From: a virus
Taxonomy: Duplodnaviria; Heunggongvirae; Uroviricota; Caudoviricetes
IMG/VR virus record: IMGVR_UViG_2574180227_000016
Reading direction: 5' to 3' (one strand)
DNA length: 21,365 bases
The notes under the pieces were generated by a model. The model was given only the letters and a program-made list of their open reading frames with translations, had not been told where the DNA came from and ran no database searches. Within the stretch, counting starts at the first letter, position 1, and the number at the start of each line of letters is the position of its first letter. A program made the position numbers and the translations under genes. Below, piece after piece: positions 9,397 through 18,918 of the stretch.

Positions 9397-9425
9397 ATAA
9401 TACGATATGTACTTTTGGAATGCAA
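9397..9425 (-). promoter_or_regulatory. PR candidate promoter (TTGCAT-17 nt-TATTAT, - strand)
   Basis: Reverse complement of 9420-9425 is TTGCAT and of 9397-9402 is TATTAT, with a 17-nt spacer, about 30 nt upstream of the cro ATG. The -10 overlaps an operator repeat. Confidence 0.5.
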
Positions 9426-9473
9426 TCGAAAAAATACATCTTGTGCATGGATGGTTTTAGTACGGAGCGTAAT
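9399..9473. promoter_or_regulatory. OR operator cluster: three 15-bp sites of form AGTAC-N5-GTACT
   Basis: AATACGATATGTACT (9399-9413), AATACATCTTGTGCA (9433-9447, weaker), AGTACGGAGCGTAAT (9459-9473). The same motif recurs at OL (AGTACACATCGTACT). Confidence 0.45.
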
Positions 9474-9488
9474 AATGAGGGTATGAAA

Positions 9489-10142
9489 ATGAAATGGTAT
9501 GAACTGGCTAGATCCAGAATGAAAGAACTCAGCATAACTCAAGAGAAGTTAGCTGAAGAGCTTGGTATGACGCAGGGTGGAATTGGTCACTGGTTGCGCG
9601 GATCTCGTCATCCATCTCTTGACGAGATTGGTGTGGTGTTTAAGTACCTTGGTATTAATAACGTCTCATTCAACCACGACGGTACATTTTCACCTGTTGG
9701 CGAATACTCATCAGCCCCCGTTAAAAAACAATATGAGTACCCTGTTTTTTCTCATGTTCAGGCCGGGATGTTCTCGTCTGAGCTTAGAACCTTTACCAAA
9801 GGTGATGCGGAGAGATGGGTAAGCACAACCAAAAAAGCCAGTGATTCTGCATTTTGGCTTGAGGTTGAAGGTAACTCAATGACCGCACCAACAGGTTCCA
9901 AACCCAGTTTTCCTGACGGGATGTTAATTCTTGTTGACCCTGAGCAGGCTGTTGAGCCAGGTGATTTCTGCATAGCCAGACTTGGTGGTGATGAGTTTAC
10001 CTTCAAGAAACTGATCAGGGATAGTGGTCAGGTGTTTCTACAGCCACTAAACCCACAGTACCCAATGATCCCATGCAATGAGAGTTGTTCCGTTGTTGGG
10101 AAAGTTATCGCCAGCCAGTGGCCTGAAGAGACGTTTGGGTGA
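9489..10142 (+). CDS. cI: CI-type prophage repressor (HTH plus LexA/S24 autopeptidase domain)
   Basis: N-terminal HTH ([25 protein letters not shown]) and C-terminal S24 signature ([10 protein letters not shown], catalytic Ser; TFKKL, Lys). GAGG sits 8 nt upstream of the ATG at 9489. An ATG at 9483 could give a leaderless start. Confidence 0.85.
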
Positions 10143-10151
10143 GGAGGATAG

Positions 10152-10493
10152 ATGGCGTTCACTGACCTTGAATATCAAGCGGTCAAAAAAGAAGTTCACC
10201 AATTCATTGAAAGCATAAGGCCGCCTGAACATATCCGCAATGAACTGGATATTGTTTATAGCATCAATGACCAAACGATAGATATCGGCGAACAGCGCCC
10301 CGTGTGGCAGGGCAACCCAGGTGAAACAAACATCCTGCCATCAGCAAGAATCAAGTACATACGTTCTCTGGATAGATGGAAAATCTATTGGATGCGGAAG
10401 GATATGAAATGGCATCAGTACAGTACTGAACTTTCGCTGACTGATGCGCTTGAGCTTGTGCGTGCTGACCCGGATTGCTGCTTCTTCGGATGA
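10152..10493 (+). CDS. hypothetical protein co-transcribed with cI (cargo gene A, 113 aa)
   Basis: GAGGAGGA RBS directly after the cI stop. Tryptophan-rich C-terminal half (WKIYWMRKDMKWHQY). Flanked by a 15-nt direct repeat. Confidence 0.6.
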   Translation: MAFTDLEYQAVKKEVHQFIESIRPPEHIRNELDIVYSINDQTIDIGEQRPVWQGNPGETNILPSARIKYIRSLDRWKIYWMRKDMKWHQYSTELSLTDALELVRADPDCCFFG

Positions 10494-10563: not shown

Positions 10564-10998
10564 ATGGCACTTAATTTAGAAAGAATATCTTTTATAACCC
10601 CATTTGATAGCAGCGAAGAACCCAACCAACCGACGCTTAATTTTACATGCAATGAATTTCCTGCGCGGCTATCAATTGATTTCAGGGTTGGTATGATCGG
10701 GTTGAAACCAAATTCAAGATATAATTTGGGTATTATGGTAATCCCCGCGCACCTAATTATAAAAAAAGGTGAGGAAATTCAATTCCCTGACGGCTCTTCG
10801 GAATCAGTTTCACTTTTCATCGATACGAAAGATAGCCATTTTGAAACAGGGGTTGGCGGACAGGTAATAGTAACATTGAAAGAAATTAGGGTCCCAGCTA
10901 AAGGGCTGTATAGTGTTATAGGGATATTGCAAGATAATGAAGACCCTAAAAATGAACTTCATAAAAATGAATCATTTTTCACCGTAGAGCTATTATGA
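10564..10998 (+). CDS. hypothetical protein (cargo gene B, 144 aa), AT-rich
   Basis: AGGAGA RBS 5 nt before the ATG at 10564. No TM segment and no recognised family. Confidence 0.55.
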   Translation: MALNLERISFITPFDSSEEPNQPTLNFTCNEFPARLSIDFRVGMIGLKPNSRYNLGIMVIPAHLIIKKGEEIQFPDGSSESVSLFIDTKDSHFETGVGGQVIVTLKEIRVPAKGLYSVIGILQDNEDPKNELHKNESFFTVELL

Positions 10999-11615
10999 GT
11001 GACGACAGTAATTTAAATAATCATGGAAAGCAAGACACCAACATATCTGAAAGCCGGAGGTTGAAGGTTGTTGGCGGTTCTGATTTTGAGGCTGAATTTG
11101 ATAATTCTCCCACCAAGGTGCAAAATAATTACATAAAACCGCCACAAACGGAGGAAGAAGTGGGAACGATCAGCAGAGAGGAACTTGATGCTCGCTTAGC
11201 TGCTAATAAAGCAGAGATGGAGTCTATTGCTTCCTCCATTAGGGCTGACATGGCTCTATCTCGTGAAAGCGTTAATGTCCAATTTGCATCACTTAATGCA
11301 GCCATAAGCTCTCTATCGTCCAAGATCGATGGAAAGATGGATAGCGCTGCTGGCGATATAAAAGCAATTAATGGGAGATTCGAAGGAATTCAAGGACAAA
11401 TAACAGGGGTTAATACCGCAATTAGTGGTGTTCAGTCGGGTATTTCTATACGATTAGCCATTTTTAGTGTCATTATCGCTGTAATAGTTGCGATTCCCGG
11501 GCTGGTATCAGCTTTAAAGTCAGACCACGCACCTTTGCAACAGCCTTCCACTTTGCAAGCGCCGCCACAAAATACCCAGCCAACAGACAACAAAAAAATC
11601 ACTCCCCAGCATTAA
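10995..11615 (+). CDS. hypothetical membrane-anchored protein (cargo gene C, 206 aa)
   Basis: ATGA overlap with gene B. Polar N-terminus, repetitive Ser/Ala/Ile-rich central segment, one predicted TM helix (IRLAIFSVIIAVIVAIPGLVSAL) and a Pro/Gln-rich tail. Followed by a strong terminator. Confidence 0.6.
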   Translation: MSDDSNLNNHGKQDTNISESRRLKVVGGSDFEAEFDNSPTKVQNNYIKPPQTEEEVGTISREELDARLAANKAEMESIASSIRADMALSRESVNVQFASLNAAISSLSSKIDGKMDSAAGDIKAINGRFEGIQGQITGVNTAISGVQSGISIRLAIFSVIIAVIVAIPGLVSALKSDHAPLQQPSTLQAPPQNTQPTDNKKITPQH

Positions 11616-12111: not shown

Positions 12112-12495
12112 ATGACACGCAGAACTCAGTTCAAAGGCAATTCACGTTCTCGTCGTCGTGAGCGTTTAAAGGCAAAGGCATTAGCTAACTGCGTACTGGC
12201 CCGCGAAGAAGCAATAAGTTCAGAAGTATTACACCGCCCTACTCTAAGCAGAGCGCAGATTCAGGCTAAAGGTACTCACGAAACGCCTGAGCGCATAGAA
12301 GACGCTAAGCCAATTAAGTTCATGGCACAGGACGTGATCTGGCAACAGAAAGAATACAGACGCAATCTGGAGCGAGCAGCCATTGTGTACGCGAATGAGT
12401 TTGGACATAAGCAACCAGAAACTGGTGTATGTCTTCCAAACGTAGCCATTTACGCGGCAGGCTACCGGAAATCAAAACAACTGACGGCGAGGTGA
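12112..12495 (+). CDS. N: N-type antitermination protein with N-terminal arginine-rich motif
   Basis: AGGAGG RBS. N-terminus MTRRTQFKGNSRSRRRERLKAKA is an arginine-rich motif. First gene downstream of PL/nutL. Confidence 0.7.
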   Translation: MTRRTQFKGNSRSRRRERLKAKALANCVLAREEAISSEVLHRPTLSRAQIQAKGTHETPERIEDAKPIKFMAQDVIWQQKEYRRNLERAAIVYANEFGHKQPETGVCLPNVAIYAAGYRKSKQLTAR

Positions 12496-12556
12496 CTTGT
12501 GTTGGTCGCCAGAAAATGAGATTAGGCAGCAAACCACTTATTTGAGAGGAATTAAT

Positions 12557-13180
12557 ATGTCATCAATCCGCTTAACTACGAGAATGAAAGAGGAAATCGC
12601 TCGTAACGCTTTAATTAAGTCTGGGGTTTTCACTGAACTTGAAGAAGTAACAAAGTTAAAGAACCAGCTTGCACTTGACGCCAGAGTTATTGCGTTTGGC
12701 GGTAAAAAGAAAACTGAGGAAGTGGATCAGTTATCATCCAAGTTGGTAGCTATAAGTGAAGAACTTGAAAAGATGGGATGTTCATTTTACTCATACGATG
12801 TTAGTTCTACTTCAATTTATCTGACTGTATCTGGCAGAAGGGTTGGATGGCATTCATATGGGAAAGACGGCAACGGCAAAGATATATTGCTCCCTACTCC
12901 GACCAAAGATAAATGCATGTTTGACGCAGAGCACGAAATAACAAAAAGGTTTGATGAAATCTGCGCATTGCAACAAAAACTTGAAGCCAAGAAAAAGGAT
13001 ATCGAATCAAATGTATGGGCTGCTTTAAACTCAGTCACAACAGTTAAGCGATTTATTGAAGTTTGGCCTGAAAGCAAAGAATTGCTACCAAAAGAAGCAG
13101 ATAAAGCAAGTACAGCACTTCCTGCTTTACGGGTAGAAGATTTGAATAAGATGATTGGACTTCCTTCCGAGGCCGCATAA
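12557..13180 (+). CDS. hypothetical protein (207 aa), AT-rich cargo between N and cIII
   Basis: Start placed at the internal ATG with GAGAGGA RBS (the track ORF begins with TTG at 12497). Lysine/glutamate-rich, no recognised family. Confidence 0.55.
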   Translation: MSSIRLTTRMKEEIARNALIKSGVFTELEEVTKLKNQLALDARVIAFGGKKKTEEVDQLSSKLVAISEELEKMGCSFYSYDVSSTSIYLTVSGRRVGWHSYGKDGNGKDILLPTPTKDKCMFDAEHEITKRFDEICALQQKLEAKKKDIESNVWAALNSVTTVKRFIEVWPESKELLPKEADKASTALPALRVEDLNKMIGLPSEAA

Positions 13181-14056: not shown

Positions 14057-14842
14057 ATGAGTACAGCACTCGCAACGCTGGCAGGGAAGCTGGCTGAACG
14101 TGTCGGCATGGATTCTGTCGACCCACAGGAACTGATCACCACTCTTCGCCAGACGGCATTTAAAGGCGATGCCAGCGATGCGCAGTTCATCGCATTGTTG
14201 ATCGTCGCCAACCAGTACGGCCTTAATCCGTGGACGAAAGAAATTTACGCCTTCCCTGATAAGCAGAACGGCATCGTTCCGGTGGTGGGCGTTGATGGCT
14301 GGTCCCGCATCATCAATGAAAACCAGCAGTTTGATGGCATGGACTTTGAGCAGGACAATGAATCCTGTACATGCCGGATTTACCGCAAGGACCGTAATCA
14401 TCCGATCTGCGTTACCGAATGGATGGATGAATGCCGCCGCGAACCATTCAAAACCCGCGAAGGCAGAGAAATCACCGGACCGTGGCAGTCGCATCCCAAA
14501 CGGATGTTACGGCATAAAGCCATGATTCAGTGTGCCCGTCTGGCCTTCGGATTTGCTGGTATCTATGACAAGGATGAAGCCGAGCGCATTGTCGAAAATA
14601 CTGCATACACTGCAGAACGTCAGCCAGAACGCGACATCACTCCGGTTAACGATGAAACCATGCAGGAGATTAACACTCTGCTGATCGCCCTGGATAAAAC
14701 ATGGGATGACGACTTATTGCCGCTCTGTTCCCAGATATTTCGCCGCGACATTCGCGCATCGTCAGAACTGACACAGGCCGAAGCAGTGAAAGCTCTTGGA
14801 TTCCTGAAACAGAAAGCCACTGAGCAGAAGGTGGCAGCATGA
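14057..14842 (+). CDS. bet: Bet (Red-beta single-strand annealing protein)
   Basis: 261 aa, essentially identical to lambda Bet over the full length. Confidence 0.9.
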
Positions 14843-15519
14843 CACCGGACATTATCCTGCAGCGTACCGGGATCGACGTGAGAGCTGTCGAACAGGGGGA
14901 TGATGCATGGCACAAATTACGGCTCGGCGTCATCACCGCTTCAGAAGTTCACAACGTGATAGCAAAGCCCCGCTCAGGAAAAAAGTGGCCTGACATGAAA
15001 ATGTCCTACTTCCACACCCTGCTGGCTGAGGTTTGCACCGGTGTGGCTCCGGAAGTTAATGCTAAGGCGCTGGCCTGGGGAAAACAGTACGAGAACGACG
15101 CCAGAACCCTGTTTGAATTCACTTCCGGCGTGAATGTTACTGAATCCCCGATCATCTATCGCGACGAAAGTATGCGCACAGCCTGCTCTCCCGATGGTTT
15201 ATGCAGTGACGGCAATGGCCTTGAGCTGAAATGCCCGTTTACCTCCAGGGATTTCATGAAGTTCCGGCTCGGTGGTTTCGAGGCCATAAAGTCGGCTTAC
15301 ATGGCCCAGGTGCAGTACAGCATGTGGGTGACGCGAAAAGATGCCTGGTACTTTGCCAACTATGACCCGCGTATGAAGCGTGAAGGCCTGCATTATGTCG
15401 TGATTGAGCGGAATGAAAAGTACATGGCGAATTTTGACGAGATGGTGCCGGAGTTCATCGAAAAAATGGACGAGGCACTGGCTGAAATTGGTTTTGTATA
15501 TGGGGAGCAATGGCAATGA
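14839..15519 (+). CDS. exo: Exo (lambda exonuclease, Red-alpha)
   Basis: 226 aa, essentially identical to lambda Exo. Overlaps the bet stop. Confidence 0.9.
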
Positions 15520-15674
15520 AGCATCCTCACGATAATATCCGGGTAGGCGCGATCACTTTCGTCTACTCCGTTACAAAGCGAGGCTGGGTATTTCCCGGCC
15601 TTTCTGTTATCCGAAATCCGCTGAAAGCACAGCGGCTGGCTGAGGAGATAAATAATAAACGGGAGAGTGTATGA
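15516..15674 (+). CDS. small protein coupled to exo (orf60a-like position)
   Basis: Manual translation [52 protein letters not shown] (52 aa). ATGA overlap with the exo stop and ATGA overlap with the next gene. Confidence 0.4.
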
Positions 15675-16423
15675 TTCATTTTCACGGTGGTCCAATAACT
15701 CCCGATACCTGTGCGTTGAAAGCCTGGAAAGGCAGACACGCATTCATCAGTTTTGCTAATCCAGCTCAGATTGATCTGGCTTCCGAAGTCACCCAATCAT
15801 TTGCTCTTGATAATGGTGCATTCACATTCTGGACAAAAAACAAGGCCATAGACTGGAATGAATATTACAGATTTGTTGAACGCTGGGGTAATCACCCTCG
15901 TTTCTCATTCGCAGTTATCCCGGATGTTATCGGCGGAACCAGTGAAGAGAATGACGCCCTGATTGCGGCATGGCCTCACGGTAAATTTATTGGTGCTCCG
16001 GTGTGGCACATGAACGAACCAGATGAGCGATTTATTCGTCTGTGCCATGAGTTTCCCCGCGTCTGCATCGGCTCGATGGGGGAATACGATGCAAAACGAC
16101 CGAGAGCGTGTCGGGCTAAACTACGCGATCTTATACGTCATGTTGTAGATCAGTACGGCTACCCAATCACCAAGATTCATGGGTTACGGATGTTAAATAA
16201 AGACATTTTTACTCATGTACCGCTTTCGTCTGCAGACAGCACGAACGTCGCAAGAAATATAGGCATCGACAAATCCTGGGTAGGTTCGCCATATGCTCCC
16301 GCAAGTAAAGAAACCCGTACGCAAGTTCTTGTGGAACGCATTGAATCATTCAACAGTGCCAGTTCACTTAATTACAACGCTGAACGGGACGTCTTTACCC
16401 CTCAACTGGCATTCGAAGTGTGA
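15671..16423 (+). CDS. TGT-fold / DpdA-like protein (putative nucleic-acid guanine transglycosylase); function tentative
   Basis: 250 aa. Motifs FALDNGAFTFW, VIPDVIGG and HGLRM...SSADSTNVARN resemble the catalytic Asp blocks of queuine tRNA-ribosyltransferase. There is no C-terminal zinc motif, as in phage DpdA-type proteins. Confidence 0.5.
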   Translation: MIHFHGGPITPDTCALKAWKGRHAFISFANPAQIDLASEVTQSFALDNGAFTFWTKNKAIDWNEYYRFVERWGNHPRFSFAVIPDVIGGTSEENDALIAAWPHGKFIGAPVWHMNEPDERFIRLCHEFPRVCIGSMGEYDAKRPRACRAKLRDLIRHVVDQYGYPITKIHGLRMLNKDIFTHVPLSSADSTNVARNIGIDKSWVGSPYAPASKETRTQVLVERIESFNSASSLNYNAERDVFTPQLAFEV

Positions 16424-16430
16424 GGCCAAT

Positions 16431-16646
16431 ATGACAATAGAACATAATAACGCCCTTCGCAGCATTGCCCGTCAGGCTAATTCTGAAATCAAAAAAGCCA
16501 GACAGCAGTTTCCGGATAAAAACGTCGATGACATTTGCCGTAGCGTACTGAAGAAGCACCGCGAAACGGTAACGCTGATGGGATTCACACCGACTCACTT
16601 AAGTCTGGCAATCGGTATGTTAAACGGCGTCTTTAAGGAACGGTGA
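16431..16646 (+). CDS. small hypothetical protein (71 aa), exo-xis region
   Basis: MTIEHNNALRSIARQANSEIKKARQQFPDKNVDDICRSVLKKHRETVTLMGF... Start at the internal ATG with GAGG upstream. Confidence 0.5.
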   Translation: MTIEHNNALRSIARQANSEIKKARQQFPDKNVDDICRSVLKKHRETVTLMGFTPTHLSLAIGMLNGVFKER

Positions 16647-16744
16647 ACATGAAAAGCAAAATCATCAGGGAGCTACAGGCTCCTTTTTTATTATTCGCAT
16701 TCACCCTCAAGCGTATTAACCAACAATTCAGGGATTAATGGAAG

Positions 16745-17748: not shown

Positions 17749-17924
17749 TGCGTGTCGCGTTTATCGGTTTATTACCATACCCGACTCGTTTTTGGGCTTC
17801 TGCGCTAATTGCAAAGCCGCATGTACTGATGGCTGACAACATCATCCCGGCACCAAAGCGCCGCCATACCGGTATTGCGGCTGCACGACGCGAAGTAAAG
17901 AAACGCAGGAGAGCAAAACGATGA
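17748..17924 (+). CDS. small basic protein (58 aa)
   Basis: AGGAGG RBS 6 nt upstream; TAATG overlap with the ea22 stop. Manual translation MRVAFIGLLPYPTRFWASALIAKPHVLMADNIIPAPKRRHTGIAAARREVKKRRRAKR. Confidence 0.35.
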   Translation: MRVAFIGLLPYPTRFWASALIAKPHVLMADNIIPAPKRRHTGIAAARREVKKRRRAKR

Positions 17925-18103
17925 AAAACCGTAAGGCAAAAATTCTGTTAGCTCGCAGAAACGGTGTTGGGGTCTGGCGCTGGTTGAGGATTAGTAACAG
18001 ACGAGTGAGGTTGACGGGGTGTTGCGGGGTGATGGGGCACAGCTGTTGCAAAAAGCCCAGCGCGTCACAGAACAGGCGGAAGAAAGGGTACGCAGTAAGA
18101 TGA
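17921..18103 (+). CDS. small basic protein, first of a tandem paralogous pair
   Basis: MKNRKAKILLARRNGVGVWRWLRISNRRVRL... ATGA overlaps on both sides. Confidence 0.35.
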   Translation: MKNRKAKILLARRNGVGVWRWLRISNRRVRLTGCCGVMGHSCCKKPSASQNRRKKGYAVR

Positions 18104-18291
18104 AAAACCGTAAAGCAAAGATGCTTATTTCCCGTGTATACAGACGTTGCTATCCCAGCCAGTGGTTGAGAGTTAGCAATCGCCGTGTGGTGTTGTACTT
18201 ATATTCTGGAATTGCCAGAGAGGGAATCAAAGATAAGCGCAGCGCGGCGCAAAACCGCTGGAAAAAACACTTGCGCACTAAAGGAGCCTGA
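18100..18291 (+). CDS. small basic protein, second of the tandem pair
   Basis: MKNRKAKMLISRVYRRCYPSQWLRVSNRRVVL... shares the start and the WLR-SNRRV-L block with the preceding ORF. Confidence 0.35.
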   Translation: MKNRKAKMLISRVYRRCYPSQWLRVSNRRVVLYLYSGIAREGIKDKRSAAQNRWKKHLRTKGA

Positions 18292-18292
18292 T

Positions 18293-18502
18293 ATGTCTAT
18301 TGCCGCAAGTTACACCATGCATCTCTATTGTGACTGCCGCCAGTGTACGGAAGGTGTATATCCAGTGCCAGACTTCGGTGAGTATATCGGTACGTCATGG
18401 TCTGGTTGTGCAAAAGAGGACCGTAAAGACGGGTGGCGAATAAGCAAAGACAAAACACGTGCTTTTGCGCCAGGGCATAAAGTTTTAAGGATTAACACAT
18501 GA
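18293..18502 (+). CDS. hypothetical Cys-rich small protein (69 aa)
   Basis: AAGGAG RBS. MSIAASYTMHLYCDCRQCTEGVYPVPDFGEY... Confidence 0.45.
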   Translation: MSIAASYTMHLYCDCRQCTEGVYPVPDFGEYIGTSWSGCAKEDRKDGWRISKDKTRAFAPGHKVLRINT

Positions 18503-18918
18503 CCACTATTACCAAAGAACGTATTGAATTGTTCATTAAAAATCCGCTTGAAAACGGGCTTACTCGTGGCGAACAAATGGAACTGGCACGAATTGCACTG
18601 GCATCACTGGAACGCGAACTGATTCGCCACGAGCATGCCAAATGGTCTGACTCCACATTTGGCTGCGTTGGCCCCATTGGTCCACTGAAACACCTCTCAA
18701 AAGAGGCTCTGGAAGCCGCAGCCGAACCAGACGATCTCAGCGAGTGGGCTGATATGCATTTCCTGTTGTGGGATGCACAGCGCCGTTCTGGCATCAGCGA
18801 TGCTGAAATTACCGCTGCTATGGAAGATAAATTGAAGATCAACATGGAGCGCCAGTGGCCTGAACCAAAAGATGGTGAGCCTCGCTTGCACATTAAAGAA
18901 CCGGCAACTCTCCGGTAA
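18499..18918 (+). CDS. DUF550-like / MazG-like nucleotide pyrophosphohydrolase-type protein (tentative)
   Basis: 139 aa. The acidic helix KEALEAAAEPDDLSEWADMHFLLWD resembles the MazG-type E/D metal-binding motif. ATGA overlap upstream. Confidence 0.4.
   Translation: MTTITKERIELFIKNPLENGLTRGEQMELARIALASLERELIRHEHAKWSDSTFGCVGPIGPLKHLSKEALEAAAEPDDLSEWADMHFLLWDAQRRSGISDAEITAAMEDKLKINMERQWPEPKDGEPRLHIKEPATLR

Follow-up and report, generated by a model that had tools for sequence, protein, structure and literature searches.

We conclude that the product of the prophage gene described here is probably a phage DpdA of the stand-alone kind, a DNA-guanine transglycosylase with a minimal TGT fold that would use a host-derived 7-deazaguanine, and we put the probability of this reading at roughly 0.55. 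The window, by which we mean the whole stretch of 21,365 nt that was analysed, covers the early-left arm of a prophage of lambdoid, Stx-phage-like type, and the gene lies within it (Table 1).

Table 1. Features of the window and motifs of the dpdA-family product (residue numbers are those of the 250-aa protein)
Feature	Position	Strand	Description
cI	9420-10142		
DUF3024 gene	10152-10493	+	PADLOC candidate defence family PDC-S43 match, E=7e-42
Two ORFs, 162 and 206 aa	10510-10998, 10995-11615	+	No family match; co-oriented with DUF3024 gene
N	12112-12495		
Nmad5 gene	12557-13180	+	Pfam PF18757 'nucleotide modification associated domain 5', E=1.8e-70; between N and kil
kil, gam	between Nmad5 gene and bet		
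bet	14057-14842		
exo	14839-15519		
DUF1317 ORF, 54 aa	15510-15674	+	Pfam E=2e-33; upstream neighbour of dpdA
dpdA-family gene, 250 aa	15671-16423	+	Stand-alone 'singleton' type; ATG start; from ORF list and raw sequence; minimal TGT-like TIM barrel without zinc subdomain
FALDNGAF	15800-15823	+	D47, predicted general acid/base (CAjan D63, bDpdA D95); F51, predicted base-stacking/gate Phe (CAjan F67, bDpdA F99)
PDVIGG	15920-15937	+	D85, predicted Watson-Crick-edge reader (CAjan D105, bDpdA D130)
PVWHMNE	15998-16018	+	H113, predicted base-reading His (CAjan H132, bDpdA H181)
IGSMG	16067-16081	+	Putative beta6-alpha6 specificity loop; G134 conserved
HGLR	16178-16189	+	H170, invariant, by position analogous to Cap10 H226; L172, putative second base-stacking residue (bDpdA L236, CAjan F189)
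ADSTN	16232-16246	+	D189, predicted catalytic nucleophile (CAjan D206, bDpdA D256)
Small ORF, 71 aa	16431-16646	+	No family match; context only
Terminator-like hairpin	16667-16685		After 71-aa ORF
TraR/DksA zinc finger, then Ea22	downstream of 71-aa ORF		
PF04447 dATP/dGTP pyrophosphohydrolase	18499-18918	+	E=6.8e-42
DUF551, DUF4222, xis, int	after PF04447 gene		In that order

The TGT-fold, DpdA-like identity put forward in the original prediction is supported by profile matches, by alignment with validated DpdAs, by the predicted fold and by the active-site residues. The protein belongs to phrog_887 of PHROGs, named 'queuine tRNA-ribosyltransferase' (E=2e-99), and the validated DpdA of phage 9g, used as a control, falls in the same phrog (E=7e-98) and is likewise without a Pfam TGT match. 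The family profile aligned in hhalign with CAjan DpdA (98.7%, E=1.5e-16, 174 columns), with 9g DpdA (92.7%) and with the Rosebush-type DpdA of Rinkes, gp3 (96.7%), which sits within a GTP-cyclohydrolase-dpdA-queC-queD-queE-folE operon. By tblastn and BLASTP, 35-39% identity (E 1e-27 to 2e-47) was found to the stand-alone DpdAs of HK106 (37%), 7-11 (35%), SW9/SEN1 and MED16 (39%). Scans of the protein against Pfam, NCBIfam and PADLOC gave no matches; PF01702 in particular gave none at E<=10 for the protein and none for 51 family members, diverse relatives included (0/51). These Pfam TGT negatives are uninformative because the validated 9g DpdA also goes without a Pfam match, and of the two kinds of profile search that had been proposed as a check, the one against PF01702 came back empty while the DpdA-type profiles matched. 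Sequence searches of the PDB, with the single protein or with the profile, returned noise only (HipT, GCN4), and hhalign of the family profile against the single sequence of E. coli Tgt gave no signal.

In an AlphaFold2 model of the protein (pLDDT 80, pTM 0.78) strands and helices alternate as in a TIM barrel, and a TGT-like (beta/alpha)8 barrel is predicted. Foldseek against the PDB returned 'TIM barrel' only; among predicted viral structures there were 30 significant matches to the model, almost all of them phage DpdA/TGT-like proteins. The C-terminal zinc motif is absent, as originally proposed: CxCxxC...H is not present downstream of D189, the four cysteines of the protein (14, 125, 132 and 147) are all N-terminal to that residue with none past position 147, and the sequence of CAjan DpdA has no such zinc site either.

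The active site is intact and conserved. Residues were mapped on a MAFFT alignment with the CAjan, 9g, Rinkes, 7-11, HK106 and DMCA proteins, and conservation was counted over 114 diverse representatives at <=50% identity. To the residues published for CAjan DpdA (D63, S64, F67, D105, H132, G153, G154, F189, D206; PMC7544227) and for bacterial DpdA (D95, F99, D130, H181, G206, G207, L236, D256, with D95A and D256A inactive; PMC10164549) correspond D47, N48, F51, D85, H113, G134, S135, L172 and D189 of the window protein. The motifs follow the order of the TGT catalytic blocks, as had been noticed from the letters, with D47, D85 and D189 aligning to Asp residues of known DpdAs. D47 is present in 111/114 representatives, D85 in 112/114, H113 in 111/114 and N48, which replaces Ser, in 102/114; D189 and S190 are found in all 93 representatives that cover the position. 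H226 of Cap10, the positional counterpart of H170, hydrogen-bonds the nucleophile (10.1101/2025.04.06.647259). The role of D85 as Watson-Crick-edge reader is the least certain of the predicted assignments, hhalign placing this loop 3 residues off the MAFFT register; we favour the latter because the A-x-x-x-D-x-I-G pattern is common with Rinkes.

That the locus is a real gene under constraint is clear from its variation. The 250-aa frame stands where it had first been placed, ORF listing and raw letters agreeing, and the motifs occupy exactly the positions then given (FALDNGAF aa 44-51, PDVIGG aa 84-89, ADSTNVARN aa 188-196, from nt 16232). Across 63 distinct alleles, drawn from 80 viral contigs plus the window, the median dN/dS was 0.048 (640 pairs; dN 0.069, dS 1.26), an approximate ratio as dS is saturated, although dN is still far below dS; D189 is invariant in this set, and an internal stop occurs in one allele. 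Homologs of the family form 6182 clusters at 90% identity and 906 representatives at 50% identity. A copy at least 99% identical is carried by 100 of 5426 complete E. coli genomes, chromosomal in every case and labelled 'hypothetical protein' by PGAP. In relatives such as VT2-Sakai, PA30 and JLK-2012 the two flanks are retained at 96-97% identity and just ~775 nt are missing, by which the gene can be recognised as a discrete mosaic cassette. The related loci counted here and below come from the close-family alignment and represent relatives of 84-100% identity only, distant contexts being taken from phage records.

In the original prediction the gene was coupled to exo. The overlap with an upstream frame is there, a DUF1317 stop codon overlapping the dpdA start codon (ATGA) in an arrangement of translational coupling, but the neighbour is DUF1317 and not exo. 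No sigma-70-like site was seen upstream of dpdA on the + strand, which fits read-through from pL. Downstream, a 117-aa ORF (16293-16646, +) overlaps the final 131 nt of dpdA and is annotated so in SfI (gp33); the ATG at 16431, immediately past the dpdA stop, is the likelier true start of the small downstream ORF. This 71-aa frame was found in 38/80 related loci.

Several neighbours were considered as possible partners of DpdA. DUF1317 was rejected as a specific one: it is directly upstream of dpdA in only 29/70 related loci, and phages without DpdA, VT2-Sakai among them, carry it too. The gene first described as MazG/DUF550-like and as possibly acting on nucleotide pools proved to be a PF04447 dATP/dGTP pyrophosphohydrolase; occurring in only 8/53 related loci and absent from SfI, it was likewise rejected and is a module independent of DpdA. 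Nmad5 genes lie 1-3 kb from a DpdA homolog in Vibrio phage Athena1 (8345-8974 of locus L013) and, weakly, in MED16 (gp46, 24% identity). As a dedicated partner Nmad5 was rejected too, full-length genes being found in 2/66 lambdoid DpdA loci; it occurs in 375 phage records, mostly DpdA-less, and many DpdA-less Stx phages carry a 96-98% identical copy. Point mutants of nmad5 were linked to escape from Tmn defence in a 2025 paper. The mechanical ORF of the Nmad5 gene in the window begins at a TTG, at 12497. In Mycobacterium phage Rinkes, a ParB-like nuclease-domain protein (gp1, 1-1302 of locus L003) is encoded immediately 5' of the GTP-cyclohydrolase-dpdA-queCDE operon and recalls the ParB-fold DpdB ATPase required by bacterial DpdA; no ParB-like gene was found near the window's dpdA.

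Two further features of the prophage were recorded in passing. The DUF3024 gene and the two ORFs that follow it are directly downstream of cI, at the position of lambda rexAB, and may form a lysogen-expressed defence cassette. At 17913-18275 (+) there is a diverged direct duplication of ~180 nt (17913-17946 against 18092-18125, 82% identity; 17981-18013 against 18163-18195, 73%), each copy of which holds a small, very basic ORF starting MKNRKAK; TRF did not detect it as a tandem array.

Where the modified base would come from is constrained by gene content. Searches by tblastn with 15 FolE, QueD, QueE, QueC, Gat-QueC and YhhQ seeds found no preQ0-pathway gene in the window, in agreement with the original prediction, and none in 86 related loci (1.2 Mb), while as a positive control the pathway seeds cross-detected one another. 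Distant relatives in other phage backbones are also stand-alone, and some still more distant homologs adjoin que genes (DMCA beside QueD, Rinkes in a full operon). Because the phage is without a preQ0 pathway, the base, whether preQ0 or its amide ADG, must be taken from the host queuosine pathway. Such use of host precursor is on record for relatives: in E. coli, the DpdA of 9g by itself modifies plasmid DNA with preQ0 made by the host, at 0.03-0.3% of G (Hutinet et al. 2019), and CAjan folE and queC mutants retain about one twelfth of the modification (PMC7544227).

By homology, the enzyme would act on DNA through a TGT-type double displacement. Upon induction or infection the gene would be transcribed within the early leftward (pL) operon; D189 would displace guanine and D47 would deprotonate N9 of the incoming 7-deazaguanine, resolving the intermediate, while D85 and H113 would read the base and F51 and L172 would stack on either side of it. 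Host-made preQ0 or ADG would be inserted, and sparse modification (~0.01-0.3% of G) would be expected. What the data show is the family, the fold, an active site kept intact under constraint, the singleton state and the cassette character of the gene; DNA as the substrate, the identity and amount of the inserted base and any gain for the phage are inferred.

The evidence for 7-deazaguanine in the DNA of relatives is direct for 9g and CAjan and by correlation for 7-11 and MED16. Phage 7-11 has 50 dADG per 10^6 nt, ~0.02% of G (Hutinet et al. 2019), and MED16 has 354 dADG per 10^6 nt, ~0.13% of G, with dPreQ0 at only 3 per 10^6 nt; EcoRI, EcoRV, HaeIII and further enzymes digested MED16 DNA as usual (MED16 paper). 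The original prediction had taken the modification for an anti-restriction mark, a view which the data on 7-11 and MED16, the nearest tested relatives, temper. For SfI-type DpdAs we found no experiments in the literature.

Which base is inserted may depend on the beta6-alpha6 loop, known to govern specificity for the 7-substituent: in bacterial DpdA (bDpdA) M208 contacts the cyano group through its backbone NH and V209 limits the space in the pocket, and in eukaryotic TGT the missing Val side chain at this loop gives room for queuine (PMC10164549). All validated preQ0-inserting DpdAs have GG(M/L)V here (GGMV in CAjan and Rinkes, GGLV in 9g), of which S135 and G137 of the window protein replace the Gly and the pocket-restricting Val; the loop reads GSMG in the window, GSSG in MED16, GCMG in 7-11 and GCCG in HK106. 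GSSG is the dominant form and clade consensus (65 of the 114 representatives), and position 137 is Gly in 80/114 and Val in 1/114. Two further positions go with it: N48 stands in place of the Ser of DpdA1, TGT and Cap10, and R173, found in 92/114, is clade-specific and corresponds to Gly in DpdA1. Both tested clade members, 7-11 and MED16, carry dADG, not dPreQ0. Taken together, the alignment and these two phages suggest an altered base preference of the clade. We would go further only tentatively, to the doubtful proposal that SfI/7-11/MED16-type singletons are a functionally distinct DpdA subfamily which, by a 7-substituent pocket remodelled with Asn48, Gly-Ser-x-Gly and Arg173, inserts 7-amido-7-deazaguanine or another non-cyano, host-QueC-derived deazaguanine straight into DNA. 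If true, this would explain dADG without dPreQ0, and without a DpdC-like enzyme, in the tested members, and ~2% of complete E. coli genomes (100/5426) would carry a prophage able to write the mark.

One rival of the preferred reading concerns the base. The protein could be an active DNA transglycosylase whose cognate base is not preQ0 and is instead, through selection by the clade's changed pocket, ADG, the QueC intermediate, or a bulkier or more polar 7-substituted deazaguanine, and its role would then not be broad anti-restriction but, for example, escape from a particular defence or marking against it. We consider this possible though rather unlikely: the correlation comes from two phages, dADG could derive from dPreQ0 through an unrecognised phage or host hydratase, and the pocket geometry is read from the alignment alone. 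Improbable to our minds is an RNA target, with the enzyme acting like canonical TGT on host or phage tRNA and changing both translation and modifications of the queuosine family. A fold and catalytic residues of the TGT superfamily would suit such a substrate, as would the name queuine tRNA-ribosyltransferase given by RefSeq and PHROGs, but that name has been passed on from remote homology, the protein has no PF01702 match, zinc subdomain or C-terminal RNA-binding extension, and its closest detectable relatives are DNA-acting phage DpdAs.

A Cap10-like enzyme working on protein-linked deazaguanine, or some other role outside nucleic-acid modification, is more improbable still, given that the base-reading position carries the His of DpdA instead of a Lys (K154 in Cap10), that no Cap9/QueC-like or CD-NTase gene was found in the window or related loci and PADLOC gave no match, and that the gene is part of a phage's lytic operon rather than of a defence island. 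Decay, finally, is strongly disfavoured. A functionless remnant in the mosaic exo-xis region might be suspected from the accessory nature of the gene (VT2-Sakai lacks exactly its segment), from the one interrupted allele and from the very low modification levels of tested relatives, yet the low dN/dS, catalytic residues invariant over the 63 alleles and nearly so over the 114 representatives, and the presence of the gene in many unrelated phage backbones all speak against it.

DpdA is treated as the signature gene of 7-deazaguanine DNA modification, and stand-alone DpdAs are the largest phage DpdA group, one whose activity and benefit to the phage are putative. The allele in an inducible lambdoid prophage of preQ0-making E. 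coli would offer the easiest system for genetics and LC-MS, and a convenient case in which to ask if singleton DpdAs modify DNA at all, which base they use, and whether modification at so low a density protects against anything. Little is added as discovery, the gene being already catalogued and already named by RefSeq and PHROGs; what the analysis does add is the set of differences in the beta6-alpha6 loop, Asn48 and Arg173 that separate the singleton clade from DpdA1.

Among known systems, the place of the gene is in the singleton DpdA group already published; it is not a DpdA1, a bacterial DpdA, a canonical TGT or a Cap10. Its closest counterpart is gp34 of SfI (YP_009147480, 'queuine tRNA-ribosyltransferase' in RefSeq), with 99.6% DNA identity and identical gam-bet-exo-DUF1317 synteny; the window allele sits in a different, Stx-phage-like lambdoid backbone, and there is otherwise no difference of substance. 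Supplementary Data 1 of Hutinet et al. 2019 has SfI YP_009147480 and HK106 YP_007151699 in its DpdA column with no pathway genes, and the same work describes a third group of 76 DpdA-only phages and a gamma-proteobacterial singleton cluster in which functional divergence is possible. A near-identical gene was thus listed as DpdA in 2019, and an identity already known has been independently re-derived here. The singletons of SfI, HK106, Salmonella phage 7-11 and Pantoea phage MED16, which make up group 3 of Hutinet et al. 2019 and the 'DpdA/TGT_1' cluster of the MED16 paper, share with the window protein the short architecture, N48, G-S/C-x-G, HGLR and the lack of preQ0 genes. A protein sharing 68% identity with the window DpdA is encoded on the 1719-bp record OR850331.1 ('Staphylococcus phage SA 1298 Kay'). 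Homologs from Salmonella P22-like phages have this same identity and bit score (362), and the record is probably mislabelled or a contaminant.

From DpdA1, the validated preQ0 DNA insertases of Queuovirinae and Rosebush-type phages (9g, CAjan, Bas24, Rinkes/Rosebush), the protein does not differ in PHROG, in the Asp/Asp/His/Asp catalytic set or in the absence of a zinc motif. It is, however, only 17-24% identical to them and ~50-65 aa shorter, and it has neither the GG(M/L)V loop nor the clustering with folE/queD/queE/queC (with or without gat-queC and yhhQ), lying outside any folE-queDEC cluster; the changes from DpdA1 are Ser to Asn48, GG(M/L)V to GSMG and Gly to Arg173, and DpdA1 phages replace 25-32% of G, against <=0.13% in the tested singleton phages. 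The bacterial DpdA of S. Montevideo (PDB 7UI4), from the Dpd restriction-modification system, has 413 aa, with Ins1, Ins2, Ins3, Ins8 and a structural Zn site, none of them present in the 250-aa protein. It also depends on the DpdB ATPase and is encoded in a dpdA-K island (PMC10164549), whereas our protein has no PADLOC match and the neighbours of its gene in the window are ordinary lambdoid genes. Relative to bacterial and archaeosine TGT (PF01702), the protein is without zinc motif, N-terminal lid and RNA-binding domains. Cap10 of type IV CBASS (PDB 9NTN), at 9% identity, acts alongside Cap9 and a CD-NTase of the same defence operon and has a Lys as its base reader (K154; 10.1101/2025.04.06.647259), the position held in the window protein by His113.
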